Positions 12,831 to 64,000 of a DNA stretch of 64,000 nucleotides are shown piece after piece (the stretch's first letter is position 1; every line of letters starts with the position of its first letter). Source of the stretch: a virus. Location: positions 27,315 through 91,314 of IMG/VR virus record IMGVR_UViG_3300042892_002114. The stretch is one strand, 5' to 3'. The notes under the pieces are model-generated. The model was given only the letters and a program-made list of their open reading frames with translations. It was not told the origin of the DNA and ran no database searches. Made by a program: the position numbers and the translations under genes.

Positions 12831-15800
12831 TCAAACGTGATTTATATGTGAAAATCCATCAATCTTCCTGATTTCCAGTTGTTTGTCTACCATGTCTCGC
12901 ATTGCGTCAATATGACTTATTATTATAATAAAATCAAAATGGGGCTTCAGATAATTAAATAACGAATGTAACATCGGAAAATTGGATGCATCCAACGCAG
13001 ATACCCCTTCGTCAACTACCAAAAAGTTGGAACGCGGTAGATTGCTGATGTTGATCAAGGATACTCTCAAAGCCAAAGCACTAACAAACTTTTCCATACC
13101 AGAGCATAGTTCCAATGGCCATTTTTTGTCATCATATTTGATATATACATTGACATTCTTGCCATCTGTTTCAATACTCATACTAAACTCAACCATTTGA
13201 GATAATATATTATTTACTTCTTGTTCAATTCTTGGAATGGCATCTGAAATAATTTTATATGGTACGCCATCTTTACCAATTGAAGTTAGATAATATTGAT
13301 AAGCAGCAAGCTCGTTTTCATACTCTTCTACTTTTTTGATTTGTTCTTCGATATTTTTTATTTGGTCTGTCAATGACACTTTGCGGCTATACGCATCCAC
13401 ATATTCTCGCTCAATATTCTTTAGTTTTGATGTTATAGTAGCAACATCATTTTTCAAATCGTAAACAGATGATTCAACCAGTTTGTTGCTTTCTACAATT
13501 TCTTTGGACTTTTCATACAACTCAACCAGATTGTCAATATCAACTATTCTATTAGAGTTTTTAGAAATTAAATTATTGAGATTGGATTTTTCCAGTTCTT
13601 TCTTGGAAATGAATGCTGTGAGTGTATTGATAGTTTCTTTGAGCAGCACACTTTGTTCATATTGAGCCACAAATGGTTCAACTTCTATAATCTGTGTTTT
13701 GATGGTTGATATGGCATCAAACAGTTCTCTTGCATCAGTTTTGTCGGATTCCAAACTATCTTTAGCAGATATAGCATCTTTTACAAACGCATTATCACAG
13801 CAATATTCACAATTTGGATCATATTTGTGGTTGGATAGATGTTCTATTTTCTTGAGTTTTTCTTTGACCACGAGCTTAAATTTTTCCAATTCTTGCTCAA
13901 GACGAGTTTTTTGACGAACAAAACTTGCATGCTTGTCCGATTTTTCTTTTAGATCATCTGGAAATGCAGATAGTTTATTGGAAGCATCCACATATTCTTT
14001 TTTCTTTGACTCTGTGTTTGTGTCAATAACCGAAATAGCATCAACAGATTGACTATTTTTTGTTTCTAAAGTTTCGCGCTCTTTTTTTAGAGCAAATACA
14101 TTTGTTGGCACATTTTCAAGTTTTATAATCTTGGCTTGTTGTTCAACGATTTTATTATCAAGTTCATTCTTCTTTGATGAATATTGATCGCGTTGACCAG
14201 TCAAATCAATAAGTTTGGACTCTGCCAATCCCAAATCATTTTTATTGGACTCAATCTTGACTTGATTGTTTTCTTTGTTGAATGACTTGATGGCACCTGT
14301 TAGTTCTTTTAGTTTGTCATTGCCCTTGGCCACAAGTTTATCAAACACATTTAGACCAATGAACTGACACAACAAATCCTTGCGTTCAGTTTGACCCATT
14401 TCAACAAACGACCCTTGATTGCCTTGTAATGCAAGTGAAGTTAGTACAAAGTCATCATAATCGCCGATATAATCACGAATGATTTCATTTGTGCTTCTGC
14501 GAGCTTCACTGTTGAGGCTAATCTTTTCGTCTTTCTCCATCTTATAGAAGTTTACATCAACTTTTACATTGCCTTTTTTATCTCTGATGCCTTTGCGCTC
14601 AATGATATATTGAATATCATTTATCTCAAATGTGAACTTGCCATGAAAAGACATTTTTTGTGAGTTCATCACATGAGTTGCTTTGAATGCTCTGGCACTT
14701 TTATCAAATGCTGTAAAGCATAATGCGTCCATCAATGATGATTTTCCGCTCGCATTATTTGCGAACAAACCATACACATCTTCCAGTTTAGTAAAGTCAA
14801 TCACATTGTTTTCACCATAACTAAACATATTACTGAACTCAAACTTGATTGGCTTCCAACGAATGTTGCGTGAAGTGTCATCTTTGCTCAAATCAGCATT
14901 GAGGTCTTTGTTGATTTTATGAACAGACTCAAGTGTGCCATCGTCCATAATATCTGGATATTTAGCTTTGAGTGCTTCACTAATAAGTTTATTTTGATAA
15001 TCAACATTGCCAATCTGACTCAAGTTGGCAGCAGCTTGAACACTTACAACTTTAGAAGCATCGTCGCCATCAACTCGCATATAAATAATGTCGCTGATTT
15101 CATGCGTCTTTTTGATTTCATTTACTACCTTTTTTAGTTCAGTAGCAATAGTTTCTTTGCAACGCACACGAAGTTTTGGCTTCTTGGGCATTGTGCTTAT
15201 ATCAGTCATCAACTTGCCGTCATCAATATCAATAGTGAAATAACCATAATCATTTGGTATTTCTACATGCTTGTATGCTCTGTTCTTTATATCCCACAAA
15301 CAAATGCCGTGACCAAGCAATGCTTCGCCATGATTTTGTTGAATAACCGAACCAGCATAACGAATGATTGGTTTTTCTGATACTGGATCGCACATTTGCA
15401 GATTTTGTGCCAAATGAATATCACCCAACAATGCCATATCATGACCATCAAACATATCATTCATGATACTCTTGTTGGTTACGGTATAACCCACATCAGT
15501 CTTGGCGTCAAATACACCACCATGAAATAAAGCAATCTTTGTATCAAACTCCGTCTTGATTTTCTTGGTCACATCTTTCATTTTTATAAATGAAGTATGG
15601 TCGGTGAAAATAGACATGTTATTTATAAGAATATTAGCAAATGAATACAACTTGCTTTCTTTTAGATAATAAAGATTGTCATGAGCCAAATTTTCTACAA
15701 TAGGAGTCAAACTATCCAATCTCGTTGTGTTTGTGAGAAGACAATCATGATTGCCCGCAATAACAATCGTAGGACGCAAATCAGATAAACTCTTTAGAAG

Positions 15801-16034
15801 GTCGCTCATGAGTTGAACACATTCGGGCGAAAGGTCAACTTTGCTGTGTGTGAGGTCTCCCGCTATAACAACCAATGTGTTTACTGGTGTCTTTTTAACC
15901 TCTTCATACACCTTCCCAAACACTTCACGATATTCTTCATGGCGTTTGGTCAAACGAATATGAATGTCCGCCATATGAACAATATAATCCACTCTGGTTA
16001 GATTGGTGTTTAGTTTCTCAAATGTATCTATCAT
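12831..16034 (-). CDS. Fused Mre11/SbcD nuclease - Rad50/SbcC ATPase (T4 gp47+gp46-like recombination nuclease)
   Basis: ADIH, AGD, GNHD, GDIH metallophosphoesterase motifs; Walker A ANNASGKSS, coiled coil with CEYC zinc hook, signature CSGME, Walker B LVVDEG, IISH. Confidence 0.92.
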   Translation of the reverse strand: MIDTFEKLNTNLTRVDYIVHMADIHIRLTKRHEEYREVFGKVYEEVKKTPVNTLVVIAGDLTHSKVDLSPECVQLMSDLLKSLSDLRPTIVIAGNHDCLLTNTTRLDSLTPIVENLAHDNLYYLKESKLYSFANILINNMSIFTDHTSFIKMKDVTKKIKTEFDTKIALFHGGVFDAKTDVGYTVTNKSIMNDMFDGHDMALLGDIHLAQNLQMCDPVSEKPIIRYAGSVIQQNHGEALLGHGICLWDIKNRAYKHVEIPNDYGYFTIDIDDGKLMTDISTMPKKPKLRVRCKETIATELKKVVNEIKKTHEISDIIYMRVDGDDASKVVSVQAAANLSQIGNVDYQNKLISEALKAKYPDIMDDGTLESVHKINKDLNADLSKDDTSRNIRWKPIKFEFSNMFSYGENNVIDFTKLEDVYGLFANNASGKSSLMDALCFTAFDKSARAFKATHVMNSQKMSFHGKFTFEINDIQYIIERKGIRDKKGNVKVDVNFYKMEKDEKISLNSEARRSTNEIIRDYIGDYDDFVLTSLALQGNQGSFVEMGQTERKDLLCQFIGLNVFDKLVAKGNDKLKELTGAIKSFNKENNQVKIESNKNDLGLAESKLIDLTGQRDQYSSKKNELDNKIVEQQAKIIKLENVPTNVFALKKERETLETKNSQSVDAISVIDTNTESKKKEYVDASNKLSAFPDDLKEKSDKHASFVRQKTRLEQELEKFKLVVKEKLKKIEHLSNHKYDPNCEYCCDNAFVKDAISAKDSLESDKTDARELFDAISTIKTQIIEVEPFVAQYEQSVLLKETINTLTAFISKKELEKSNLNNLISKNSNRIVDIDNLVELYEKSKEIVESNKLVESSVYDLKNDVATITSKLKNIEREYVDAYSRKVSLTDQIKNIEEQIKKVEEYENELAAYQYYLTSIGKDGVPYKIISDAIPRIEQEVNNILSQMVEFSMSIETDGKNVNVYIKYDDKKWPLELCSGMEKFVSALALRVSLINISNLPRSNFLVVDEGVSALDASNFPMLHSLFNYLKPHFDFIIIISHIDAMRDMVDKQLEIRKIDGFSHINHV

Positions 16035-50237: not shown

Positions 50238-50441
50238 TTATCGGCTACGGCGAGCCTTTTTCTTGGGCCTCTCGGTCTTGGTGGCAACATACTTCTCACC
50301 AGCAGACTTTCTGCGTGCTGCATTTACCCACGAGTTGCGCGTCTTGCGACTAGCAAACTCGTATGTTTTACCTTCTGCCAGCAGACTTTTCACCTCTTCC
50401 TCGGAGGTTGCCAGCAGGATTTTTTGCTTTAGTCCAGTCAT
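50238..50441 (-). CDS. Small basic hypothetical protein
   Basis: 67 aa, K/R-rich C-terminus. Confidence 0.6.
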   Translation of the reverse strand: MTGLKQKILLATSEEEVKSLLAEGKTYEFASRKTRNSWVNAARRKSAGEKYVATKTERPKKKARRSR

Positions 50442-50444
50442 AAA

Positions 50445-50639
50445 TTAACGACGATAGTTGAGTTGACGAACATCAAGCTTGCTACCATCTGGATTGCGCT
50501 TGATAATACCCGCCCAATACTCATATTCCCTTTGGGCATCTAGCTTGGAGTCATACTCCGAATCGCTTACGCGGATGCCGTTCCGAAAAATGGCATACAT
50601 TGCTGGTTCAGTTTGATTGTCAACTGTGTTATTTTGCAT
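50445..50639 (-). CDS. Hypothetical protein
   Basis: 64-aa ORF between promoter and terminator. Confidence 0.6.
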   Translation of the reverse strand: MQNNTVDNQTEPAMYAIFRNGIRVSDSEYDSKLDAQREYEYWAGIIKRNPDGSKLDVRQLNYRR

Positions 50640-50651
50640 ACTTTTTGTTTT

Positions 50652-50840
50652 TTAGTCGTTATACTGAGAATAGGCATAACTGTCGAGCATAGACAGTTCG
50701 TCTGTAATATCATGAATTGTGGGCTCAATCATGGCTGGTAGCCCAACCATCTTAACAGGTTGTTCAGTGTCCACAGAAACATTGTTTTTGGGACGACCAA
50801 CGCCGCGAGTTTGTTTAGTTGTATTGGATGTTTTATTCAT
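50652..50840 (-). CDS. Hypothetical protein (AT-hook-like GRPK), predicted leaderless
   Basis: Start MNKTS at 50840, preceded by TTGACT-N17-CAGTAT-N7 (50841-50876). Confidence 0.6.
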   Translation of the reverse strand: MNKTSNTTKQTRGVGRPKNNVSVDTEQPVKMVGLPAMIEPTIHDITDELSMLDSYAYSQYND

Positions 50841-51058
50841 CTTGTATATACTGGCTGCACATTTAATAAAAGTCAACCACTTTTTTCGTAAATATACTAT
50901 TTATAATAACCCCTCATGAAAAATAGCATATACACATTTTTTGATAGAATGAGGCACGCTGGTATGCATTGTTTGTGCATAATAAAATGTATAAGATTGA
51001 GAAGAAATCCTGTGTTTTATATCAAAGGATTGTGTCGTACATTATTTACTATAAAGTA

Positions 51059-53441: not shown

Positions 53442-55181
53442 TTATATATCTCCTTCATTCACATTCATTATGTTATTAAACTCTGCCACAGTTATGCCAA
53501 GTGCATCTGCGATTTCAATTGCTTTTATATTTTTGTATCCCATTGCCAACAATGCTTCACGCTTTTTTGCTGGTGGCAACAAATGAATCTTTTTATTCAA
53601 TTTTTCAATTTCTTCTGGTGGCAATGATTTGATTTTTTTCACATCACCAAACAGTGTAGAAATAAAATCTTTTTGATTTGCATCTGGCTTGCCGGTGTTG
53701 GCATCAACATTACTTGCTTTGGTGAGTGGAGTTGTTGATCCATTGCCGTAACTTCTTTCCAACCAATCAACTTCATAATCATTCAAGTCGCCAGTTTCTT
53801 TATGCATGTTTTTGAAAAAGTTTTTTACCCAATTCCAATTTTTCACAACTTTTTGTGTATTATTCCAAAAACTCATCAGTTTCTTTCTATACCACAAACG
53901 ACCAAAAATTGTTCCTTGTATGTTTCTGAAATTAATACCTTGGTTTCCGGTTCTGCCGCCGTTTTTTAAATATTCATGAAATGCACTTGGTTGCGTCAAC
54001 AGTTCTCTTAACGCAACTATATTGTCGGTATTTATGCCATTCTTTTCAAGTCTTCTTTGCAAACTTGCGTCGTTGGCATCTGGGCGGTCCAGTAAATATA
54101 TATACAAAGTTTCCATTGTATCCATGATGTCAGCGTGTATTCCACCCACATTGACTATGCTGCATTTTTGTGTGATAATAAAAGCAACAGCATCTGCATC
54201 TGTCCATTCAGAAATTTCTTTTCCCGACAAACCAACCACAGCGTCAGGATCTTCATTTATCAAATCTTTTAGTTTGATATGACCTTCCAGTGCTGGTACA
54301 GCAGCATCTGCTCTAGCAGCATAATCAAACCCTTTGGCAGCTTTTTTCAAGTGATCTGCTTTATATGTTGATCCAGCTAATTTTTTCTTTGCTTTTGAAT
54401 CCAGATGTTGAACCGCCAATAGTTTTTTTATTTCTTCTGGACTCAATTTTTCTTTGTTTGAATTGCCCACAAGTTCTGAATATGCAAACAAACCTCGCGT
54501 GTCCACAAATTCATAAGCAAACTTTGTTTTATCAAGTTTCATTGCACTCATCAACTTTTCAACAAGTTGGAAATTTTCATTTACAATTTCATCCTTGCTG
54601 TTCCAAAAACTGATTGCATTTTTCTTGATCCAAATTCTACCAGCCGGAACAGTGGCTGAATCGTCCGCGTTTCCTCGAATATTCAATTGACGAAAACGCA
54701 GTCTATTGTTGTGTAAATAATTTCTGATTGTTTCAACATCATCACCTTGTTGCTGCAAACCAACAAAACCCACAGTTGCTGCATCATCACCATCATCTTC
54801 TTTTTCTGCGTATGAATATGCAGATATATTACCAAACACATCACGCTTGATTTTATACATGTTTTTGAACGTGGCGGCATATAAGGTGGCTTTATGTGAA
54901 GCTGTTTGCAACATTTCTTCCATGCTGCCATGGGTGTTTTTTTCAGAATACATTATTACACCAGTTTCAACATCAAAGAAAAAAGCATAAGCATCATTAG
55001 ATAAATATTTGAATGTTGCACCAGTTTTTGGCACAGCTGCACCAAGACTGTTTAGTCTTTCTGCATCAGATTTTTTTGTTTTATCATTTGAATTTCCCGA
55101 CAAATCAATTCTGTCAGGAGATTCATCCAATATACTTTCCAACAAAAATTCTATATCAAATGGCAATCTGGGCTTGTTCAT
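53442..55181 (-). CDS. Hypothetical protein made of two tandem homologous domains
   Basis: Duplicated motifs ESPD/EDPD, DAYAF/DAVAF, GRIW..ISFWN/GRLW..MSFWN. Confidence 0.7.
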   Translation of the reverse strand: MNKPRLPFDIEFLLESILDESPDRIDLSGNSNDKTKKSDAERLNSLGAAVPKTGATFKYLSNDAYAFFFDVETGVIMYSEKNTHGSMEEMLQTASHKATLYAATFKNMYKIKRDVFGNISAYSYAEKEDDGDDAATVGFVGLQQQGDDVETIRNYLHNNRLRFRQLNIRGNADDSATVPAGRIWIKKNAISFWNSKDEIVNENFQLVEKLMSAMKLDKTKFAYEFVDTRGLFAYSELVGNSNKEKLSPEEIKKLLAVQHLDSKAKKKLAGSTYKADHLKKAAKGFDYAARADAAVPALEGHIKLKDLINEDPDAVVGLSGKEISEWTDADAVAFIITQKCSIVNVGGIHADIMDTMETLYIYLLDRPDANDASLQRRLEKNGINTDNIVALRELLTQPSAFHEYLKNGGRTGNQGINFRNIQGTIFGRLWYRKKLMSFWNNTQKVVKNWNWVKNFFKNMHKETGDLNDYEVDWLERSYGNGSTTPLTKASNVDANTGKPDANQKDFISTLFGDVKKIKSLPPEEIEKLNKKIHLLPPAKKREALLAMGYKNIKAIEIADALGITVAEFNNIMNVNEGDI

Positions 55182-55412: not shown

Positions 55413-55500
55413 ATATATCAATAAGTATATGCTCAAGACATTTATGTTGATATATACAAAAACTATATAACAAAAAATCAATCTTGACTTATTATGAAAC

Positions 55501-55875
55501 ATGTTCATGATATATGCCACAACTAAAAAAGATATGCTATTTAATTTAGAAACAATCAAACGTAGACTTGATATGCTAAAATTGCCGCCAACGACAGGGC
55601 AAATTATATTAAACAAGTGGCATGCTAGAAAATTTAAAAAGAAATTCAAAATTTCATATCAAGCGTGGATAAATGATGACGCAAGTATTATATCCGAGGA
55701 TGAAGTAGTCGAATGGGAAGCATCCTTTGGATGGAACGATGAATGTTTCGAAGAACTATTTTGTCATATAAAATATGCTAAATGGCGGGGAAATAGATGG
55801 AAATTTACATATAGACCAGAAACCAAAGAATTTCGAAAAGAAATGTTCCAGCGTTGGAGAAATGCCACATATTAA
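55501..55875 (+). CDS. Hypothetical protein (Trp-rich); start uncertain
   Basis: One of only two credible plus-strand ORFs; TTGACT box upstream at ~55484. Confidence 0.55.
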   Translation: MFMIYATTKKDMLFNLETIKRRLDMLKLPPTTGQIILNKWHARKFKKKFKISYQAWINDDASIISEDEVVEWEASFGWNDECFEELFCHIKYAKWRGNRWKFTYRPETKEFRKEMFQRWRNATY

Positions 55876-55890
55876 AATACACAATATATT

Positions 55891-56187
55891 ATGCCAATAA
55901 ACATGGATATAATCGAAAATAGGCTATATCAGCTTAGATATGAAGAGTATATGTCAAAGCCTAAAAAGAAAACCAAACCTGAAGTATATACTCAATCTCG
56001 GATACAAGAAGAAATATTCTTTAATGACGCATTGTATTTTGATATACACAGAGAACACTCACACGAGTTTTCTGATCTTATGAGAAATGGTTGGCCAGAA
56101 AATCTGTCAAAGGAAAATTTAAAATTACAAAAAATCTATATAAGAAGAAGAGTATATGATATGGGTAGATATGTTATCAAGAACTAA
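55891..56187 (+). CDS. Hypothetical protein
   Basis: 98-aa plus-strand ORF directly after 55501-55875. Confidence 0.55.
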   Translation: MPINMDIIENRLYQLRYEEYMSKPKKKTKPEVYTQSRIQEEIFFNDALYFDIHREHSHEFSDLMRNGWPENLSKENLKLQKIYIRRRVYDMGRYVIKN

Positions 56188-56388
56188 CATATAGAATATC
56201 ATATATACAAAAATCCTATAAACAAAAATTAGAAAAATTCTAAATTCAAAAAATAGGGTATAATATCATAAAAGTGTGTATAGGATATATGAAATTTTAA
56301 CTATATGAAAAATACATGCACAACATATGCTTTTCGTATATACGAAAAGTGTATAAGAAAAATTGACCTCGAATAGAGAATGAATATG

Positions 56389-56522
56389 GACCCCCGTGGG
56401 GGGTGGGGGTTTACCCCACCTAGAAGGCACCAAACACCCCACCTAGAGGGGGGAGGGGTGGGGGGTTAAAGCCACCGTCCCCCCATCCCCCCGTGCGGGG
56501 GTGGCGTGATCCACGCCACCCT
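56389..56522. other. G/C homopolymer island with hairpins and a direct repeat
   Basis: Runs of G4-G6 and C4-C6; ACCCCACCTAGA twice (56413-56424, 56436-56447); perfect hairpin GGTGGCGTG-atc-CACGCCACC (56500-56520). Confidence 0.75.
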
Positions 56523-56526
56523 CTCG

Positions 56527-56799
56527 TCAGACCGTCGGCTCTTGCCAGTAAACCTTGCTGAAGGTCGTGCCCCAAGTGTCGGGACGAACGGCGATGGCCT
56601 TGAAGACCAAGGAGTTGTCGTGGCTCGGGTCAAAGACCTGATAGCCATATACCGGCCCCTTGTTCATGTCGCTGTCGCGCAGTATGTTGACGGCATAGCC
56701 CACCCGCTTGGCCTCCTTGACCAGATTCTTGATGAAGCTGGTGGAGCAGACGCGGGTGAAGGTTGACCGAACAGGAGCAGTGTTGATGGTGGAGTTCAT
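56527..56799 (-). CDS. Hypothetical cassette protein (GC-rich codons)
   Basis: 90 aa; ATG sits in a repeat copy. Confidence 0.75.
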   Translation of the reverse strand: MNSTINTAPVRSTFTRVCSTSFIKNLVKEAKRVGYAVNILRDSDMNKGPVYGYQVFDPSHDNSLVFKAIAVRPDTWGTTFSKVYWQEPTV

Positions 56800-56845
56800 G
56801 TTCTAAACAATGACGATTATTTATAAAAAGTAAAGCACAAAGCAC

Positions 56846-56870
56846 AAAAAAGGGGCTTTTTATTGCCCCC
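56846..56870 (-). terminator. Rho-independent terminator
   Basis: GGGGC/GCCCC stem followed by a T6 run on the minus strand. Confidence 0.6.
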
Positions 56871-56878
56871 TGTTTTAT

Positions 56879-57202
56879 TTAAATGATGCCCGCAACAAGC
56901 ATCCAACTTGGACTACCTTCGCTGTCATAGCCGTCTGGCTCAACTACCTGACCAAGCATTGACTTGGCAACACCATCGTCGCTCCACTTTTCCATGGTCT
57001 TGAGCGAAGGAGCCTTGAACTTAGTGAAGTAGCGTGGCAGACTAGAGCAACGCAGCTTCACTGTCACAGGAACGCCGCCAGCACTGCCACCAGCCAGTGC
57101 GCAAACAGTGCCACCATCCTTGAAGATTACATTTAATTTTGTGCCAACAGGAATAACCAGACCGTTCTTGAACTTGATTTCTTTGTTATTAACGAGGTTC
57201 AT
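56879..57202 (-). CDS. Hypothetical cassette protein
   Basis: 107 aa; C-terminal VEPDG..G.PSW motif; ATG in repeat. Confidence 0.75.
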   Translation of the reverse strand: MNLVNNKEIKFKNGLVIPVGTKLNVIFKDGGTVCALAGGSAGGVPVTVKLRCSSLPRYFTKFKAPSLKTMEKWSDDGVAKSMLGQVVEPDGYDSEGSPSWMLVAGII

Positions 57203-57233
57203 GTTATAGATAGTGTCTTACTTTTTATAAATG

Positions 57234-57500
57234 TCAACCAATTATTTTATCCAACGCGCTGATTGCAAGCAAATGACTTTCTTTACATTGCTTTGCACGC
57301 AGTTGCAAGTGCTCAACACTAACATTCTTATAAAAATTATCTATAATATATTTGTTTTTGTCGCTCACATCTCCGTTGCTAATGTCATGAATGCATTCAG
57401 CACGACTATATTCATAACTGTCATAATCCAAAGTGTCCATTTCCGAAAGTAAAATGTCTTGCAAAGCCCAAGGCAAATCAAAGAATGATGTTGGTTTCAT
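57234..57500 (-). CDS. Hypothetical cassette protein
   Basis: 88 aa; ATG in repeat; TGA stop lies inside the next TTGACA. Confidence 0.7.
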   Translation of the reverse strand: MKPTSFFDLPWALQDILLSEMDTLDYDSYEYSRAECIHDISNGDVSDKNKYIIDNFYKNVSVEHLQLRAKQCKESHLLAISALDKIIG

Positions 57501-57532
57501 GTTCTAAACTATGAGTTAGATTTTATAAAATG

Positions 57533-57739
57533 TCAAGGATTTTTATGGTCGCCAACCCAGATTCCAATGGGCGACTTGGAACGATCATATGCGCCATTCG
57601 CGCCGATAGGATAAATAAGATCAAGCGCATTTATGCCAGAAAATCGACCAGTTACACCGTTCATAACATCACAGCTAATGTCTCCACCGTGAACTTTCTT
57701 GATGTCGTTGAGTTGCTTGATAAGGTCTTTAAGTTTCAT
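57533..57739 (-). CDS. Hypothetical cassette protein
   Basis: Start MKLKDLIKQL defined by the repeat; TGA stop inside the next TTGACA. Confidence 0.7.
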   Translation of the reverse strand: MKLKDLIKQLNDIKKVHGGDISCDVMNGVTGRFSGINALDLIYPIGANGAYDRSKSPIGIWVGDHKNP

Positions 57740-57786
57740 GTTATAAATACTGACAGAGTTTTTATAAATGTCAAACCAAATTTCAA

Positions 57787-57993
57787 TCAATCCATACGCT
57801 TAACAATTACTTTAGTTTGTTTCATTATGGATGAAAAAACGACCTGACTCAGTCTTTCGTTCCTCTGAATTTCGCCCAGTGTATTTGGGTTAACAACTCG
57901 TTGTGCTCCCTCTTGGCTAATACCATAACCGTTTGCGGCATAAAATGAACCAAGCAAAATATAGTTTAGAGAATAGACGTAAATTAAGTTCAT
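57787..57993 (-). CDS. Hypothetical cassette protein
   Basis: Start MNLIYVY preceded by a half repeat (TAGTATTTATAAC). Confidence 0.6.
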   Translation of the reverse strand: MNLIYVYSLNYILLGSFYAANGYGISQEGAQRVVNPNTLGEIQRNERLSQVVFSSIMKQTKVIVKRMD

Positions 57994-58003
57994 GTTATAA
58001 ATA

Positions 58004-58159
58004 CTAAAATAGGGTGCTGCCAATGTATGAGAGAATCAATCCAATAGAGCACAACAGTAATGCCAATTTACGGTATTTACCTTGCCCAATAGAATGGTTG
58101 TAAATAAAAAAGCCAGCGATAGAGAGCAAGCAGCCGAATAAGAGCAGGAATGATTTCAT
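58004..58159 (-). CDS. Small two-TM membrane cassette protein
   Basis: Start MKSFLLLFG defined by the repeat; two hydrophobic segments. Confidence 0.65.
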   Translation of the reverse strand: MKSFLLLFGCLLSIAGFFIYNHSIGQGKYRKLALLLCSIGLILSYIGSTLF

Positions 58160-58190
58160 GTTATAAATACTGACAGAGTTTTTATAAAAG

Positions 58191-58394
58191 TCAAGCCTTT
58201 GGAACAAGCACACCTTCTTTATTTCGTGAACGCTTTAAAGCATACCACGTCCAAGCGAATGGAAGAGCGAACGAAAGTAGAATTACAATTAACTTAAGAG
58301 TGATGGTTTCTTTCTTGAACGCTCTGATTGAGTAGTTTACATTCGATTTAAAATGCGCTTTGAAAGAGGTGTCTGTGGTTCGCGTGTAAATCAT
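58191..58394 (-). CDS. Small single-TM cassette protein
   Basis: 67 aa; ATG in repeat. Confidence 0.65.
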   Translation of the reverse strand: MIYTRTTDTSFKAHFKSNVNYSIRAFKKETITLKLIVILLSFALPFAWTWYALKRSRNKEGVLVPKA

Positions 58395-58425
58395 AAGAGA
58401 GATAATGACTTACTTTTTATAAATG

Positions 58426-58641
58426 TCAAGCAGCCTTTTCACCTTTGATAAACAGCAATTCTTTGACCTGCTTGATCTTGACAGTTTGACCCTCCTCGGC
58501 CAGAATTTTTGCTTCTTTCATAGCAGATTTGAGTGTTTTGAGTGTGGTGTCCAAGGTTTCATCGTCATATTCTCCCCAACCACTTGTGGCACCAATCGTG
58601 TAGAGTTCAAAGTATGTCTTGGTAAGTTTCTTGGATTTCAT
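58426..58641 (-). CDS. Hypothetical cassette protein
   Basis: 71 aa; ATG in repeat. Confidence 0.7.
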   Translation of the reverse strand: MKSKKLTKTYFELYTIGATSGWGEYDDETLDTTLKTLKSAMKEAKILAEEGQTVKIKQVKELLFIKGEKAA

Positions 58642-58673
58642 GTTATAAATACTGACTTACTTATTATAAAATG

Positions 58674-58892
58674 TCAAGCACTCAATGCAAAATTGCTGCC
58701 AAATTTTCCAGTAACATTGCTGCGTTCAAAAGCAACAATGTCATTGTTCACAGAAAAAACAATTGAACGTATGATACCATATTCATCAAATTGAATGTTC
58801 AACAGTTTATATGATGTATTGGGTGCTACAACAATCCAAGTGTTGTTGTAGGTTTTCAAATTGGCGACATTGTTGAAGATAACAAATTTCAT
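58674..58892 (-). CDS. Hypothetical cassette protein
   Basis: 72 aa; ATG in repeat. Confidence 0.65.
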   Translation of the reverse strand: MKFVIFNNVANLKTYNNTWIVVAPNTSYKLLNIQFDEYGIIRSIVFSVNNDIVAFERSNVTGKFGSNFALSA

Positions 58893-58931
58893 ACACTTAG
58901 ATTGATCTATTATTTATAATAAGTCAAGAAA

Positions 58932-59096
58932 TTACTTCTTTTGATTTTCTAGAATCTCCTTTAGTTCCTTGGCGAAATCAACGACCCAGTATTCATCCAA
59001 TCCAAGATCGCCCTTGGCCCAATGATCGCCGCCGAGACGCTTTGCGTGCTTAATGAAAAGCTTATCTACCAGTTCTTGAAAATCGTTGTCGTTCAT
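58932..59096 (-). CDS. Hypothetical cassette protein (54 aa, not in ORF track)
   Basis: MNDNDFQELVDKLFIKHAKRLGGDHWAKG...; ATG in a degenerate repeat (TGGACT-N16-CACTAT-N7). Confidence 0.65.
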   Translation of the reverse strand: MNDNDFQELVDKLFIKHAKRLGGDHWAKGDLGLDEYWVVDFAKELKEILENQKK

Positions 59097-59142
59097 AAAA
59101 GTAATAGTGAACTAAATTAAAAAAAAGTCCAGACAAAAGTAT

Positions 59143-59178
59143 AAAAAAAAGAGGGAGTCGCCACCACGCGACTCCCTC
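59143..59178 (-). terminator. Rho-independent terminator
   Basis: GAGGGAGTCGC/GCGACTCCCTC 11-bp stem plus T8. Confidence 0.85.
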
Positions 59179-59204
59179 AACTATGAACACTCTCAACCTA
59201 AATC

Positions 59205-59558
59205 TTAGTGGTGGTTATAACAAGAAATTGGCTTGCCACCCCACACATAAAAGTTGCTGTAGCTGTTGTTCTTGACGCGATAGCCGTCGCCATCAGCAGT
59301 AAACCGCTTGGTTTCAGTATCACCCTTGATGCGATCCGTAGCAGGCGTGCTGATCCATTCCATGCCACCGCCGCCACTGTATTTGTTGTCAGCAGGCAAG
59401 CGCACAATCTTGACGCTTTTGCCAGTTACGGCCACAACCTTGGCCCACGACGCAATGCTGGCTTCATAGCCACTGATGCTGACCAATATGTCGCCAACCT
59501 TGGGACCATTGACAACCGTGGGCTTGTTTACCAGATCAGGAGAAAAGATAGAGTTCAT
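59205..59558 (-). CDS. Hypothetical cassette protein
   Basis: 117 aa; KVGDIL...GYE motif; ATG in repeat. Confidence 0.75.
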   Translation of the reverse strand: MNSIFSPDLVNKPTVVNGPKVGDILVSISGYEASIASWAKVVAVTGKSVKIVRLPADNKYSGGGGMEWISTPATDRIKGDTETKRFTADGDGYRVKNNSYSNFYVWGGKPISCYNHH

Positions 59559-59601
59559 GTTGTAAACTATGACTGGTTTTTATAAAAAGTCGAGACAATA
59601 A

Positions 59602-60018
59602 TCAAATGTTGTTGAGAATATTTTGACTGTTGACGAATGTCTCATCGCCATTGTCATGCATAATCTTAACGCTAAAATCCTTGGCATCTAGACCATCAAA
59701 CAAAGATGTGTTCAAAAACATATGTGGAAAAGATTCAATCAATTCAACAAATCCACTGTTAAATGATGGCGTATGAATCCAACGACCATTGCTGAGTTTA
59801 TTAAACTCCTCACTATGAGTGCCTTTCACAAGCAAATTGGACCATTCCATAAGTTTTTGTTTATCAACAGATGCATCTCCACAAAATTTGCCAGAATTAT
59901 ATGGAAGATTGAAATACTCAAGCAGCATTTCATGCATGATCTCAGATTGATAGTCAGACAGACTTTGCTTGATCTCGTCGATTGTCAGAGCAATTGTGGT
60001 GTGCTTGGTGATCTTCAT
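59602..60018 (-). CDS. Hypothetical cassette protein
   Basis: 138 aa; ATG in repeat. Confidence 0.7.
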   Translation of the reverse strand: MKITKHTTIALTIDEIKQSLSDYQSEIMHEMLLEYFNLPYNSGKFCGDASVDKQKLMEWSNLLVKGTHSEEFNKLSNGRWIHTPSFNSGFVELIESFPHMFLNTSLFDGLDAKDFSVKIMHDNGDETFVNSQNILNNI

Positions 60019-60062
60019 GTTTAGAATACTGACAGAGTTTTTATAAAAAGCAACAGTATTTT

Positions 60063-60350
60063 TTAGTCAAACGCAGGATGACTGGCATTTGCAACATAGA
60101 TATGAAAATGTGCTGTGCTGCGTGGAGCACGATAATCATTCAAATTTACGACATTAACATATTTCATTTCGTTGCGCGACTTGACCCAGCTCAATAGCTT
60201 GTCAACACTAGCATATGATTCCACAGCCCAAGCCACACGGCTGGCTCCACCTCTTGCTCCACCCCAGCCGCTCATGCACTTGTCCTTGGCAACGATTGCC
60301 CACTTGTGAGTGATTTTCTGAGATTCATTGCGATCATCTACGGTTTTCAT
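60063..60350 (-). CDS. Hypothetical cassette protein
   Basis: Start MKTVDDR defined by the repeat; DKCMSGWGGA..R.EMKYV motif. Confidence 0.75.
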   Translation of the reverse strand: MKTVDDRNESQKITHKWAIVAKDKCMSGWGGARGGASRVAWAVESYASVDKLLSWVKSRNEMKYVNVVNLNDYRAPRSTAHFHIYVANASHPAFD

Positions 60351-60393
60351 GTTATATATACTGACTATTTTTTTATAAAAAGCAACTCTATTT

Positions 60394-60525
60394 TTACTGC
60401 CACTTGTTGTTTCTGTTCTTGCGAGTGTAGGCACCTTTGCCTTTTTTGGTTTTGTGAATCTGATTGCCCAGATTCATGCCAGAGCTGAACACGCTGCGAA
60501 GTTTGATTGGCGAGTTGGTCTTCAT
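60394..60525 (-). CDS. ArfA-like (alternative ribosome-rescue factor A-like) peptide, 43 aa, not in ORF track
   Basis: MKTNSPIKLRSVFSSGMNLGNQIHKTKKGKGAYTRKNRNNKWQ; KKGKGxYxRK matches the ArfA core KKGKGSYxRK. Confidence 0.6.
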   Translation of the reverse strand: MKTNSPIKLRSVFSSGMNLGNQIHKTKKGKGAYTRKNRNNKWQ

Positions 60526-60557
60526 GTTGAATACACTGACAGAGTTTTTATAAAAGG

Positions 60558-60743
60558 TCAAGAAGCTTCTTCGGTATCTTGATCAACGTAACTGTATGAA
60601 ATACAATCAATTTCGTTCCAAAACTTATTCAAGGCTTTGATCTCGGCCTCAATTTTGGACTCTGCTGAAACGGTATATGTGCGTTCTACCTGTTCACGCG
60701 GGTCATAAACACTTTGAGCGTAGATGGTGGTGATGAAGTTCAT
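60558..60743 (-). CDS. Hypothetical cassette protein
   Basis: Start MNFITTIY defined by the repeat. Confidence 0.7.
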   Translation of the reverse strand: MNFITTIYAQSVYDPREQVERTYTVSAESKIEAEIKALNKFWNEIDCISYSYVDQDTEEAS

Positions 60744-60774
60744 GTTTATGACTATGGCAGAGTTTTTATAAATG

Positions 60775-60996
60775 TCAAACAGATATTGGTGCTGGACGAC
60801 CAGTGGCGTCATCAAAAATATAATTCACTGCATCTTCTGATTGTGCAGCACGACTTTTGATTGGAACATACCAACGAGAAAGCAGCTCATGCCCAGCTTT
60901 TTCAGCTTCAATTTTGGTGGCAAATCGCAGAGCATTGCTTGCCCAAGATTTTTCGCCTTGATACATTGTGCAAACTTCAGTTTTCCAAGATTTCAT
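60775..60996 (-). CDS. Hypothetical cassette protein
   Basis: Start MKSWKTEV defined by the repeat; W..NALRFAT..EA motif. Confidence 0.75.
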   Translation of the reverse strand: MKSWKTEVCTMYQGEKSWASNALRFATKIEAEKAGHELLSRWYVPIKSRAAQSEDAVNYIFDDATGRPAPISV

Positions 60997-61034
60997 ATTT
61001 AAGATAATGTATGAGTTTTTATTAAAAGCGAGAC

Positions 61035-61199
61035 TTATTTTACTTTTTTGGATGATAGTTGAGCTTTCCAAGCAGCAACAACTGCATCAACTGCGAACTT
61101 ATGCTCGTCTTCTGTGATTCTCGTAGCAGCACAAGCTTCGTCCAGCTCAAACACAATGTTGCCAATTTCAACGCCAGTGATAATTGATTTAGAGTTCAT
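61035..61199 (-). CDS. Hypothetical cassette protein
   Basis: Start MNSKSII defined by the repeat. Confidence 0.65.
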   Translation of the reverse strand: MNSKSIITGVEIGNIVFELDEACAATRITEDEHKFAVDAVVAAWKAQLSSKKVK

Positions 61200-61245
61200 A
61201 AATAAGATAATGTATGATTTTTTATTAAAAGCGAGACTTATTTTT

Positions 61246-61443
61246 TCAATCAACAAAGTAAATCACTTTGTCAGAGTGCCCTACGTCATAACTCAGTCTC
61301 ATTTTCATAAGCCGTTCAGAGTTCTTGTCGAGATAGTCGTGGAACTCTTCATATGAGCAATCAGTAAACCGCATCCAAATTCTCAATCGAAGTTGAGTAG
61401 GAAACCGGCCAAGCTCTCTCTCAAAGTTGATGATAATTTTCAT
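61246..61443 (-). CDS. Hypothetical cassette protein
   Basis: 65 aa; ATG in repeat. Confidence 0.65.
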   Translation of the reverse strand: MKIIINFERELGRFPTQLRLRIWMRFTDCSYEEFHDYLDKNSERLMKMRLSYDVGHSDKVIYFVD

Positions 61444-61481
61444 ATTTAAAACAATAGCAGAGTTTTTATAGAAAGCGAGAC

Positions 61482-61700
61482 TTATTTTAAATTTTCAACG
61501 GTCCAACCACGCTGCCAAGCATCCATGAGCTTCAACAGTTGCTTGGTAAATTTCCAATCAGCTGTGCTGTATTTCTTGATGAAATAACTAAACTCAACAT
61601 CAGATGCACAAGCACACAAGATGCCACGCTGAAAAGCGGCTGCACCCATAACAGTTGCTTTGTTCAAGTCGTTCTGAAAATCTGCTTTGGTGAGGTTCAT
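61482..61700 (-). CDS. Hypothetical cassette protein
   Basis: 72 aa; G..AF..G...AW.RGW motif; ATG in repeat. Confidence 0.7.
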   Translation of the reverse strand: MNLTKADFQNDLNKATVMGAAAFQRGILCACASDVEFSYFIKKYSTADWKFTKQLLKLMDAWQRGWTVENLK

Positions 61701-61736
61701 ACTTAAAACAATGTCAGAGTTTTTATAAAAAGCAAG

Positions 61737-61769
61737 AAAAAAGGGGAGGTTTTTTATGCCTCCTCTTTT
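61737..61769 (-). terminator. Rho-independent terminator
   Basis: GAGGAGG/CCTCCCC stem followed by T6 on the minus strand. Confidence 0.65.
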
Positions 61770-61790
61770 CTTATGAACCCAACGAAAAAA

Positions 61791-61982
61791 TCAAAAGTCA
61801 AGAAATTCTGGTTCAATAAGTGATACATTTATAGCATCATCAAACAGCAGCACATTGTCACCATTGTCTTCATCAACCCAATATGTCAATGACATATTTT
61901 GATTTTCATGAATAACTGCAACAGTGCCTGTGCTTGTTGAACAGTTATGAGGAAATGATAATCTGTCGCCTACAAGATACAT
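61791..61982 (-). CDS. Hypothetical protein (second gene of a two-gene cassette)
   Basis: Start MYLVGDRL 1 nt after the stop of 61984-62295; no repeat of its own. Confidence 0.55.
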   Translation of the reverse strand: MYLVGDRLSFPHNCSTSTGTVAVIHENQNMSLTYWVDEDNGDNVLLFDDAINVSLIEPEFLDF

Positions 61983-61983
61983 T

Positions 61984-62295
61984 TTACTCGTCCTCCCCAC
62001 CAAAGCTGTCAATCGACGGGCAGTAGTTTTCCTCGTCATCATAGCCAGCGGAACGCAGAGCGTCAGCATCAGCCTCGCCGTCGTGGCGAAACTGGTCAGG
62101 CTCGTTGTCATCACCAGAGCTACCGAAATCAACAATGCCTTGCTCATGCAACAAGTCCACGAGATAATCAACATCATCGGTGTTGATTGTCATATTGTCA
62201 TAATCAACGCTATACTGGGGCGTGCTGTCAAGCTCCAGAGCAGTGACGGCGAGCAGAAACAGACCCTTTTCGGTGAAGGTGATTGAGGAGTTCAT
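61984..62295 (-). CDS. Highly acidic cassette protein
   Basis: 103 aa, D/E-rich, DADAL.SAG..DE.Y motif; ATG in repeat. Confidence 0.75.
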   Translation of the reverse strand: MNSSITFTEKGLFLLAVTALELDSTPQYSVDYDNMTINTDDVDYLVDLLHEQGIVDFGSSGDDNEPDQFRHDGEADADALRSAGYDDEENYCPSIDSFGGEDE

Positions 62296-62337
62296 ATTTA
62301 AAACAATGACAGAATTTTTATAAAAAGCAAGACCTAT

Positions 62338-62529
62338 TTATTCTTCGGAGGTTTTGGACTTACATGGCAAAGGGCGGACAATTTCCAGATCAACACGCCA
62401 CTCATAAGTGGCATCATTTCCATAAGCAATCTTGACCAAATTACTTCCATCTCCGTAGTGGCCAACAACCATACACTGAAAGCCCTTGAACCTGCCCTTA
62501 TGTGGGATGACGATTGAATGAAGTTTCAT
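62338..62529 (-). CDS. Hypothetical cassette protein (KOW/SH3-like)
   Basis: Start MKLHSIV defined by the repeat; GRFKG..VV pattern. Confidence 0.6.
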   Translation of the reverse strand: MKLHSIVIPHKGRFKGFQCMVVGHYGDGSNLVKIAYGNDATYEWRVDLEIVRPLPCKSKTSEE

Positions 62530-62567
62530 GAGTAATACTATGACTATTTTTTTATAAAAAGCAACTC

Positions 62568-62795
62568 TTATTTTGCCAATTTGCTGTTCACAACGTGTTT
62601 GATCAGGTCGTTGAGACCCTTGCCCACATACTTGCAACGCTTGAGCAAGTTTTTGCTGTCATAATTCGGAAAGCCACTTTCTTCTTCTATCGAATCGGGT
62701 GAAAGAAAAACCCACTTATTTTCTGCCCTGAGATACAGATAAATAAAACCTTCTTTATTTTCAACGTAATAACCGGGTTTTGGTGATTTGTTCAT
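62568..62795 (-). CDS. Hypothetical cassette protein
   Basis: 75 aa; ATG in repeat. Confidence 0.7.
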   Translation of the reverse strand: MNKSPKPGYYVENKEGFIYLYLRAENKWVFLSPDSIEEESGFPNYDSKNLLKRCKYVGKGLNDLIKHVVNSKLAK

Positions 62796-62833
62796 ATTTA
62801 GAATAATGTCAGAGTTTTTATAAAAAGCAACAC

Positions 62834-63079
62834 TTATTTATCAAAAGTTGCGATTGGCTCAATGCCACCCACCAAGCTGCGAACAAAATGACATTTCAGC
62901 GTGTCGCTGTTCCAAGCAGTAAAAGTGAATTTGCGACCATCATAGCTCAACACTTTTTTGCTGATCTTCTTTACATCATCCCAACCATTTGGAACATCAA
63001 CAGTAAGAAATTCACGCTGAACATCTGGACGATATGAGTAAACAACTGAAATGTCGTTGGGAAGAATGGTTGCTTTCAT
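62834..63079 (-). CDS. Hypothetical cassette protein
   Basis: 81 aa; ATG in repeat. Confidence 0.7.
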   Translation of the reverse strand: MKATILPNDISVVYSYRPDVQREFLTVDVPNGWDDVKKISKKVLSYDGRKFTFTAWNSDTLKCHFVRSLVGGIEPIATFDK

Positions 63080-63117
63080 ATTTAAAACAATGACAGAATT
63101 TTTATAAAAAGCAACTC

Positions 63118-63246
63118 TTATTTTTTCTTCTTTGGCACACTAACAATGTATTTTCCACTGCGTTCAGAGAAAGCATAATTGCTTGTTGCTAAATTTTTCT
63201 TGGCAAATTCAATAACTTGCTGCTTTGTGAATCGTTTGAGTTTCAT
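63118..63246 (-). CDS. Small basic protein (42 aa, not in ORF track)
   Basis: MKLKRFTKQQVIEFAKKNLATSNYAFSERSGKYIVSVPKKKK; stop abuts the next repeat. Confidence 0.5.
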   Translation of the reverse strand: MKLKRFTKQQVIEFAKKNLATSNYAFSERSGKYIVSVPKKKK

Positions 63247-63297
63247 GAATAAAAATTGTGCGTGAGTTGATATGCGCACCCCATCATTGAAATTTAT

Positions 63298-63591
63298 TTA
63301 CACAATCTCAACGTCCTTGAAATATCGCTCAGAACGATGCAGAATTTCACTCCAATCATTTTCTACGCTACTTGGAATTTCATCATCAAAGTGCGGAAAC
63401 GCTTCGGCACGACCAAGCGCAATGTTCAACGCCAGTTCTGGGTTGAACTTGTCGCCTCGGTTGGTGGCACACAGGCTGTAGCCAAAGCCAACTGTATTGT
63501 CGTGCCGCTTCACAGCGACGACCACGCCGACTTTTTGCCGTCGCCGGTTGCGAACATACTGAAAGATAGTGTTGTTAGGAGGATTGATCAT
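63298..63591 (-). CDS. Hypothetical cassette protein
   Basis: Start MINPPNN about 25 nt downstream of a repeat copy; G.S.C...D.F....G..IA..RA-like motif common in phage proteins. Confidence 0.7.
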   Translation of the reverse strand: MINPPNNTIFQYVRNRRRQKVGVVVAVKRHDNTVGFGYSLCATNRGDKFNPELALNIALGRAEAFPHFDDEIPSSVENDWSEILHRSERYFKDVEIV

Positions 63592-63660
63592 AGGTATTGT
63601 GTTGTTGTTTGACTGAAATAATGATAGTAGCAGAGTTTTTATAAAAAGCAACTCTATTTT

Positions 63661-64000
63661 TTAGCGAAGATACGCAGGACCATATTCAGTGAATTTGGTC
63701 AGCACGTTGGCATCCTTGACGTTGCCGCGCACGCCCTTGGCAACAGGAGCCTTCCAAGTGCCTTTGAGCAAATCGCCAGTGGCTACGTCATAGAAGCAAT
63801 AAACGCCAACGGCTTTGAGCGGACCAGTGCGATGCGGCACGCGCTCACACTTAGCAAGTTTGGCATAACGCTCGCCCACGCTGTCAACCATGACCACGGG
63901 AGCATCATTGTGCGTGAAGTTGTTGCGTTGCCAATAATCACTGATTTTCTTGTTCACGCCACGAATAAAATCCGTGAGCGGCATATCATTTTTCAGAGCA
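63661..64000 (-). CDS. Hypothetical phage protein, 5' end probably outside the window
   Basis: Frame stays open upstream of the ATG at 63984; TGDLLKGTWKAP.KGVRGNV motif. Confidence 0.65.
   Translation of the reverse strand, partial: ALKNDMPLTDFIRGVNKKISDYWQRNNFTHNDAPVVMVDSVGERYAKLAKCERVPHRTGPLKAVGVYCFYDVATGDLLKGTWKAPVAKGVRGNVKDANVLTKFTEYGPAYLR

Follow-up and report, generated by a model that had tools for sequence, protein, structure and literature searches.

Organisation of the array

The 64,000-nucleotide stretch of viral DNA analysed here (the window) corresponds to bases 5,427–69,426 of a 73,750-bp virus contig (G000); positions called genome positions follow the numbering of that contig, and all others that of the window. 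At the end of the window, on the minus strand, lies an array of small open reading frames (ORFs), most of which are preceded by a copy of the same 44-bp promoter-like unit. This array is likely the early and hyperplastic part of the genome of an uncultured T4-related giant phage, with each ORFan fused to its own 44-bp promoter unit.

A search with the 18-mer core of the unit, allowing up to three mismatches, returned 12 matches in the window against 0.27 expected, a number reached in none of 100 shuffles. An iterated position weight matrix (PWM) identified 30 copies of the 44-nt element, every one of them on the minus strand, and the plus strand has none. By this matrix the array spans positions 56,828–68,144 in window numbering (genome 62,254–73,570), and eight of the copies lie beyond the window end, up to genome position 73,570; the contig ends at 73,750. 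The window itself holds about 24 copies, 21 of which end exactly in an ATG, whereas one (anchor 63,645) is followed by a 32-nt leader and two (58,920 and 58,001) are degenerate or truncated. An earlier note on this DNA had described 24 copies, nearly all ending in the ATG of a short ORF, and an array that runs past the window end; the scan bears out each of these statements, and both examples given there (57,737–57,774 and 62,293–62,330) are correct. The ORFs measure 42–138 amino acids (aa) in the window and up to 226 aa past its end. As the same note had also observed, there is almost no other intergenic DNA: the distance from the upstream stop codon to the ATG is 31–47 nt for 22 of 26 cassettes, and the unit fills the entire intergenic space.

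On the gene strand, the consensus reads aaaaTAAgag-TTGCTT or TTGACA-TTTATAAAAA-CTCTG-t-CAnTnT-7 nt-ATG-AA. The −35 box occurs as TTGACA, TTGACT or TTGCTT and is followed by a 16-nt spacer that holds TTTATAAAAA and then by a −10 box of the form CAnTnT; a G at −14, two bases before the −10 hexamer, is also conserved. Information content is highest at T-TG of the −35 box, at TTTATAAAAA, at G(−14), at CA and the final T of the −10 box and at the ATG. The 5′ side of the unit is A-rich and often contains the TAA of the upstream gene, and every unit includes a perfect 8–12-bp AT palindrome (TTTTATAAAA). Units recur about once per 230–400 bp across more than 11 kb, and 26 of the approximately 34 array genes have a promoter unit of their own. 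Typical units fold no better than shuffled sequence. The earlier statement that the copies lack a stem-loop holds for 21 of the 24 in-window units and fails for the other three, which have a terminator-like hairpin with a U-run directly upstream (Table 1). One isolated copy of the unit was found outside the array (anchor 50,869), in the structural-gene region, where it precedes a 62-aa ORF that is followed by two more small ORFs (50,238–50,881, minus strand).

Table 1. Cassettes of the array and related features, in window coordinates; scores are those of the PWM.
Feature	Position	Strand	Element and remarks
In-window part of array	56,527–64,000	−	PWM scan and gene table; full array reaches 68,144
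Cassette, leadered exception, 97-aa ORF (63,298–63,591)	63,298–63,657	−	Element 63,614–63,657 (TTGCTT...TACTAT), score 30.9; 32-nt CA-rich leader
Cassette, 81-aa ORF	62,834–63,120	−	Element 63,077–63,120, score 51.3
Cassette, 75-aa ORF (cluster 13)	62,568–62,836	−	Element 62,793–62,836, score 50.9; placed elsewhere in G001/G002
Cassette, 63-aa ORF	62,338–62,570	−	Element 62,527–62,570, score 39.8; this genome only
Cassette, very acidic 103-aa ORF	61,984–62,336	−	Element 62,293–62,336 (second example of the earlier note), score 52.5
63-aa ORF without own element	61,791–61,982	−	Coupled to upstream gene via TAAAATG (from the sequence)
Cassette, 72-aa ORF	61,482–61,770	−	Element 61,698–61,741, score 49.2; weak hairpin with U-run ~61,740–61,770, fold z −1.2
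Cassette, 65-aa ORF	61,246–61,484	−	Element 61,441–61,484, score 46.3; this genome only
Cassette, 54-aa ORF	61,035–61,240	−	Element 61,197–61,240, score 39.1
Cassette, 73-aa ORF	60,775–61,037	−	Element 60,994–61,037, score 45.8
Cassette, 61-aa ORF	60,558–60,784	−	Element 60,741–60,784, score 43.4
Cassette, 43-aa ArfA-like ORF	60,394–60,566	−	Element 60,523–60,566, score 40.7
Cassette, 95-aa ORF	60,063–60,391	−	Element 60,348–60,391, score 43.0
Cassette, 138-aa ORF (cluster 23)	59,602–60,059	−	Element 60,016–60,059, score 49.0; presence/absence polymorphic in nature, junction at ATG
Cassette, 117-aa ORF (cluster 24)	59,205–59,599	−	Element 59,556–59,599, score 35.6; in all relatives
Cassette of PeSL-like build, 54-aa ORF	58,932–59,178	−	Degenerate element 59,094–59,137, score 20.8; hairpin with U-run 59,151–59,178 (−26.3 kcal/mol, z −5.3)
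Cassette, 72-aa ORF	58,674–58,932	−	Degenerate element (TTGACTTATTATAAATAA...); homology-block end at 58,928
Cassette, 71-aa ORF	58,426–58,682	−	Element 58,639–58,682, score 34.1
Cassette, 67-aa ORF	58,191–58,435	−	Element 58,392–58,435, score 35.2
Cassette, 51-aa hydrophobic ORF	58,004–58,200	−	Element 58,157–58,200, score 53.3
Cassette, 68-aa ORF	57,787–58,010	−	Truncated element, ...TTTATAAC-ATG left (candidate recombination scar); homology-block end at 58,009
Cassette, 68-aa ORF	57,533–57,780	−	Element 57,737–57,780 (first example of the earlier note), score 49.6
Cassette, 88-aa ORF	57,234–57,541	−	Element 57,498–57,541, score 30.1
Cassette, 107-aa ORF	56,879–57,243	−	Element 57,200–57,243, score 41.3
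Last cassette, 90-aa ORF	56,527–56,871	−	Element 56,797–56,840, score 25.4; terminator-like hairpin with U-run 56,850–56,871, fold z −2.5
Isolated element and 62-aa ORF, outside array	50,652–50,881	−	Score 23.1

Cassette genes and their products

Substitutions between orthologous cassette ORFs are distributed over the three codon positions as 113/93/245, and this bias identifies the ORFs as real genes. They are mutually unrelated, as had been claimed, with no paralogues detected by blastp even at E ≤ 1 (best 0.097). Database searches with the cassette ORFs returned only three sub-threshold matches in Pfam and only families of unknown function in PHROGs. The matches in a protein atlas were viral hypotheticals alone, and nearly all the cassette ORFs are ORFans. 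In the PDB we found weak ArfA matches for one ORF and nothing else, and neither Rfam families nor tRNAs were found in the array. The roles in host takeover or anti-defence that the earlier note suggested for the cassette genes are candidates by analogy with T4 early genes.

Two of the products carry recognisable features. The 43-aa protein encoded at 60,394–60,525 (minus strand) contains KTKKGKGAYTRK, which lies in register with the KKGKGSYxRK motif at the C terminus of ArfA, a ribosome-rescue factor. Its score against the Pfam ArfA family is 22.7 bits, below the 25.5 cut-off, and its six weak PDB matches (E 0.27–0.85) are all ArfA. This cassette is among the most widely shared, being present in all five relatives described below (G001–G005). 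The 103-aa protein encoded at 61,984–62,295 (minus strand) is extremely acidic, with 27 D+E against 3 K+R, a composition that DNA-mimic anti-restriction proteins also show; it has no match in Pfam, PHROGs or the PDB, and only viral hypotheticals in the atlas.

Phage and relatives

The minus strand holds all long genes. Those of the window encode several T4-type proteins, including a gp6-like baseplate wedge protein, a primase, a gp46/47-like nuclease, glycosyltransferases and methyltransferases. A single 1,067-aa protein (12,831–16,034, minus strand) matches an SbcD-like PHROG over residues 17–325 and an SbcC-like one over residues 295–1,065, and on these matches it corresponds to a fusion of the T4 gp47 and gp46 equivalents. 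The same fusion occurs in Microcystis phage Mel-JY01 and in a 484-kb uncultured phage. CheckV estimates the G000 contig to be 27% complete.

An exact 18-mer scan of IMG/VR identified five related contigs (G001–G005), all of which carry the same array, with 21–35 strand-specific units each, mostly ending in ATG. One close relative, G003, is 297,258 bp long and rated 100% complete; its units are confined to ~172–213 kb, with 34 in forward and 2 in reverse orientation. Based on the T4-type proteins of the window and on this complete relative, the DNA studied is assigned to a fragment of an uncultured T4-related giant phage. A diverged relative used below, G005, has an array G+C content of 50% compared with 39% in G000. 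Among named phages, Microcystis phage Mel-JY01 and the Flavobacterium “immuto” phages come closest, at just 36–43% amino-acid identity. The unit motif was not found in either of these and is confined to the present clade, and the array had no megablast match among GenBank phages. As for clues to the host, psbA was not found in G003, and an 18-mer scan of 185,579 prokaryote genomes gave only single chance-level matches and no array.

Just past the last cassette lies an island of G-runs and C-runs (56,380–56,520; ccccgtggggggtggggg...), at the meeting of the minus-strand array and the sole plus-strand ORFs (55,501–56,187). In Rfam it drew only a match far below threshold (27 bits, where the gathering score is 80).

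Spacing between unit and start codon

For analysis of the spacing, the ATG was removed from the detection matrix and the distance was taken from the −10 hexamer to the first ATG opening an ORF of at least 30 aa. In G000 this gap is 7 nt in 25 of 29 units; one unit lies at 6 nt, two are leadered (30 and 32 nt) and one has no such ATG. The 7-nt gap also accounts for 22 of 35 units in G003, where six others are at 6 or 9 nt and the last seven either lie at 1, 27 or 32 nt or have no such ATG, and for 15 of 25 in G005, where six others are at 6 or 8 nt and the last four either lie at 1, 3 or 34 nt or lack such an ATG. The base directly before the ATG is a pyrimidine in 25/25, 22/24, 23/23 and 16/17 units of the sets counted, and in G005 it is specifically C in 15 of 17. 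Six bases separate this C from the −10 box in G005; they are unconserved (cttttgt, aataccc, gactcca and others), whereas their length is retained.

Bacterial RNA polymerase prefers to start at a purine preceded by a pyrimidine, 7–8 nt after the −10 box. Because the array combines a fixed length, a free sequence and a terminal Y-A, we infer a start at the A of the ATG: most units probably initiate transcription there or within one base of it, and the array mRNAs would then be leaderless. A Pribnow box 6–8 nt from the start codon is a recognised signature of bacterial leaderless genes (PMC6028130), and the array units show it, with the −10 box at this distance from the AUG and no ribosome-binding site. 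The retention of both spacing and Y-ATG in the diverged relative also supports the earlier proposal that each unit is a promoter of sigma70 geometry with the ATG at the expected +1.

No Shine-Dalgarno (SD) sequence was found in the array units. This part of the earlier description stands as an observation, and the trait extends to the whole phage: of 45 genes outside the array, just 8 have an SD-like 4-mer in front, so translation in the host evidently starts without SD. The only SD-like sequence of the array (GGAGGA, 8 nt upstream) precedes the 63-aa ORF at 61,791–61,982 (minus strand) and lies within the upstream gene. Two units, at 63,614–63,657 and at genome 70,240–70,283, are not fused to an ATG and act through leaders of 30–32 nt that share a CA-rich tract (AACAACAACA...). 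Both have T instead of C at the first −10 position (TACTAT, TACAGT).

We also looked for transcript evidence among metagenome loci; none of the 13 loci encoding gene 24 begins at the ATG. Full-text literature searches returned no description of leaderless early-gene arrays in T4-like phages, and on leaderless early genes in T4-like phages or cyanophages they gave incidental mentions only. The searches brought up one giant phage with mapped transcription starts, phiKZ, in which there were no leaderless transcripts.

Promoter identity

The −35 box lies 16 bp from a hexamer with A(−11) and T(−7), the second and sixth positions that a sigma70-type −10 box most needs, and the G at −14 fits the G of an extended −10. 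The repeated unit thus resembles a sigma70-like early promoter, though its −10 box is weak relative to TATAAT. In T4-type phages, early genes are transcribed by the RNA polymerase of the host (PMC2988021).

A number of observations weigh against host-type promoters that start at the ATG. The −10 sequences (CAGTAT, CATTGT, CACTCT) match TATAAT poorly and have C at −12. A generic sigma70 scan recovers only ~4 units because of this deviation, and the 26 sites that it reports in the region, against 20.3 in shuffles, represent no enrichment. TTTATAAAAA is as conserved as the −35 box, which a plain sigma70 promoter does not require. Since SD sequences are missing throughout the phage, their absence from the array is in itself no evidence for leaderless mRNAs, and part of the constant spacing could reflect the common descent of the copies. 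Finally, terminators are few, so most ORFs would also sit in read-through transcripts and be translated from internal AUGs.

These points bear on two alternatives. According to the first, transcription does not start at the ATG; the units would be AU-rich, unstructured, SD-independent translation-initiation regions, or short leaders in long read-through transcripts, and their constant distance to the ATG would result merely from the copying of one repeat. Such a role would suit a phage whose other genes are translated from short SD-less leaders, an array with terminators at just 3 of 24 units, and the two CA-rich leaders, from which leadered SD-less initiation appears to work in this host. However, the bases before the ATG have diverged in G005 while their length and the C before the ATG were kept, a pattern expected neither from descent alone nor from a translation enhancer, and the −35/−10 geometry places +1 at the ATG. 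We therefore regard this alternative as decidedly unlikely.

The second alternative concerns the polymerase. TTGAC-TTTATAAAAA together with CAnTnT could be the specific recognition sequence of a phage-directed polymerase form (a phage sigma factor or co-factor, or a virion or phage RNA polymerase) and not a host sigma70 promoter, in which case the start could still be at the ATG. Conservation of TTTATAAAAA and of C at −12 goes beyond sigma70 needs, also in the diverged G005, and both the failure of the generic scan and the confinement of the motif to this clade, to the exclusion of Mel-JY01 and the Flavobacterium immuto phages, are consistent with such a factor. On the other hand, a perfect TTGACA or TTGACT placed 16 bp from a hexamer with A(−11), T(−7) and G at −14 is textbook sigma70 geometry. 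Moreover, the early genes of T4-type phages are served by the host enzyme (PMC2988021), no MotA homologue was found, and non-array genes are enriched for a different motif. Although less doubtful than the translational one, this alternative is still improbable, and recognition by a sigma70-family holoenzyme, most likely that of the host, remains our preferred reading.

Two further identities were considered for parts of the unit and dropped. The TTGCTT variant resembles the T4 Mot box (TGCTT), which sits closer to the −10 box than the 16 bp seen in the units; neither G000 nor the complete G003 gave a match to MotA (PF09114), which is weak evidence as the control genomes also gave no match. TTTATAAAAA was compared with the T4-type late promoter (TATAAATA). 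This late consensus is essentially absent upstream of non-array genes (ATAAATA before 1 of 45), which use TATATTTATA instead.

TATATTTATA is enriched 16–17-fold within 45 nt upstream of non-array genes, for example before the ATGs at 55,181, 48,076, 30,755, 22,633 and 16,966, and is probably the late or middle promoter of this clade. It lies at a variable 4–25 nt from the ATG, so the rigid spacing is specific to the array. TATATAC is enriched 11-fold upstream of non-array genes, and three copies of ATATATACAAAAAnnTATAAnnAAAAAT occur at 55,450–55,478, 56,201–56,229 and 56,336–56,364; these may indicate a second promoter class.

Cassette rearrangement among relatives

Homologous blocks shared by G000 and its relatives have 83–98% nucleotide identity and differ in cassette order, and many cassettes occur in only some of the genomes. 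Cluster 13 lies between clusters 12 and 14 in G000 and between 20 and 21 in G001/G002; clusters 29 and 31 have exchanged places, cluster 114 is placed differently in G001 and G003, and G001/G002 carry cluster 56 in duplicate. Of 38 unique homology-block ends in the array, 25 fall within −50 to +10 of a unit ATG, compared with 15.7% expected (binomial p = 5e-12). Several of the remaining ends coincide with the degenerate unit (58,928), the truncated unit (58,009) or a terminator (56,873). The earlier note had proposed gain, loss and reordering of genes at the repeat, to be contradicted by relatives with identical gene order and with breakpoints unrelated to it. The comparison instead revealed insertions and deletions, a translocation, a swap and a duplication, with breakpoints concentrated in the repeat.

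Individual junctions can be resolved within the units. G003 and G004 lack cassettes 28–32, and their junction consists of the left half of the unit before gene 28 and the right half of the unit before gene 33. Similarly, the G001 unit before gene 18 is a mosaic of the two units that flank gene 17 in G000. Across 12 full-length metagenome or virus loci and G000, the gene in front of gene 24 is 23 in some and 22 in the others, and in the latter arrangement the complete promoter of gene 23 is joined to gene 24 exactly at the ATG. Units resemble their neighbours more closely than they resemble distant copies (r = −0.27, permutation p = 0.0005), with TTGCTT-type units grouped at 60,018–63,079 and TTGACA-type units at 56,799–58,641, a pattern compatible with gene conversion or duplication acting locally.

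Selection for intact genes would likewise leave breakpoints at gene boundaries, a further point against a role of the repeat. On this account, illegitimate events occur anywhere, and selection keeps those between genes, where the units happen to be. Because intergenic DNA is almost wholly unit, breakpoint enrichment alone cannot separate the two models. The structure of the junctions is more informative: they retain a complete, correctly spaced unit made from halves of two parental units, one lies exactly at the ATG, a truncated unit stands at a breakpoint, and neighbouring units are homogenised. Furthermore, recombination between such units has been shown experimentally for PeSL elements (PMC2839356). 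That the repeats play no part therefore seems very unlikely to us, and we continue with exchange between units as the preferred explanation.

As to the pathway, switch points are spread between the −35 region and the ATG, so general homologous recombination is more likely than a site-specific mechanism. The tyrosine integrase family PF00589 was not found in G000 or in the complete G003, whereas the control search was positive in 14 of 14 genomes; the description of the system as integrase-free is in line with this result. A RecA-family recombinase (RecA/UvsX homologue) is present in G003. The companion description of the array as integron-like fared differently. It would imply a dedicated site-specific recombinase acting on a core site, for example the TTTTATAAAA palindrome, which is indeed present in every unit, and the cassettes are indeed single genes bounded by units. 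Yet neither G000 nor the complete relative has a tyrosine integrase, the mosaic junctions reveal no fixed site and point to general homologous recombination or gene conversion, the units do not fold into an attC-like hairpin (beyond the 8–12-bp AT palindrome we found no stable fold), and every cassette has its own promoter. We consider an integron-like mechanism highly improbable.

Proposed mechanism and significance

In the mechanism that we propose, a sigma70-family holoenzyme would initiate at the A of each ATG, and since transcription would begin there, each promoter would yield an mRNA with a leaderless first cistron. With terminators at only 3 of 24 units, these early transcripts would continue into the following cassettes as a nested set. 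As the same ~44-bp sequence stands on both sides of every gene, exchange between these flanks by homologous recombination or gene conversion could delete, insert, duplicate and move genes, each of which would stay expressed. Candidate machinery comprises the RecA/UvsX homologue and the SbcCD/gp46-47-like nuclease of the phage lineage.

A more far-reaching reading may be entertained, although we think it rather unlikely. Promoter and start codon would together form a single 44-bp “expression socket”, early messages would be obligatorily leaderless, and ORFs captured at the ATG would be expressed at once. The invariant TTTTATAAAA palindrome, located between the −35 and −10 boxes, would be the putative binding site of a dedicated factor, of the phage or the host, that turns the array on or off as a whole or promotes exchange, making the array a co-regulated gene-capture platform.

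If the starts are confirmed, the array would be a clear natural case of a lytic phage expressing a whole early-gene class from leaderless mRNAs, and the “mobile regulatory cassettes” of T4-type phages would prove reducible to a bare promoter and ATG. The sequence rule TTGAC-TTTATAAAAA-N6-CAnTnT-N6-Y-ATG can be used to call the true starts of tiny ORFans and could delimit the early regulon in uncultured giant phages. Owing to the junction exactly at the ATG, unrelated coding sequences appear swappable behind a resident promoter without loss of expression. The fixed architecture opens two matters to direct test: whether recombination embedded in promoters drives the turnover of accessory genes, and whether translation in the host starts independently of SD or on leaderless mRNAs.

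Comparison with known systems

T4 early promoters are strong, of the sigma70 type, and have an extended −10 box and A-rich UP-like tracts (reviewed in PMC2988021). The array shares with them the −35/−10 geometry, a TGn-like G, an A-rich upstream tract, small early genes and a host polymerase, some of these features being presumed here. T4 early mRNAs differ in having leaders and SD sequences, and the T4 consensus is GTTTAC...TATAAT as opposed to TTGAC-TTTATAAAAA...CAnTnT.

With bacterial leaderless genes (“group C” of GeneMarkS-2, PMC6028130) the units have in common a −10 box 6–8 nt before the ATG and no ribosome-binding site. Here, however, the arrangement is limited to one gene class of a phage whose other genes are leadered and SD-less. 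Leaderless-rich bacterial groups include Actinobacteria and Deinococcus-Thermus.

Integrons likewise consist of arrays of single-gene cassettes with unrelated functions that vary between relatives. They differ from the present array, which has no intI, no attC hairpin and individual promoters in place of promoterless cassettes under a common Pc, and integron junctions are site-specific whereas homologous exchange is indicated here.

The closest parallel is provided by the PeSL (promoter-early stem-loop) elements, mobile regulatory cassettes of the T4-type phages RB49/phi1, T4/PST and KVP40/nt-1 (Arbiol et al, 2010, PMC2839356; Comeau et al, 2014, PMC4122927). These are early-promoter units, repeated within hyperplastic regions, through which ORFans are deleted, inserted and replaced, and in RB49 and phi1 mini-circles and crossovers between the −10 box and the ATG were demonstrated experimentally (PMC2839356). 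A PeSL unit comprises an AT-rich region, a stem-loop, −35 and −10 boxes, an SD sequence and the start codon (PMC4122927). In the array described here, 21 of 24 in-window units lack the stem-loop, and the start codon is present without SD or leader, 7 nt after the −10 box. The invariant TTTATAAAAA in the spacer, the CAnTnT −10 box and the higher unit density also set the array apart. Nevertheless, both systems place repeated sigma70-type early promoter units, running through the start codon, before small ORFans in a variable region of a T4-type phage. Both have an AT-rich stretch upstream of the −35 box and involve no integrase, and three of the units here even have an upstream terminator hairpin. 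Close relatives also differ by insertions and deletions, replacements and displacements with junctions in the units. With no integrase present and a RecA/UvsX homologue in the complete relative, we conclude that the array is neither a strict PeSL system nor an analogue of integrons, and that it is a variant that works like PeSL elements.

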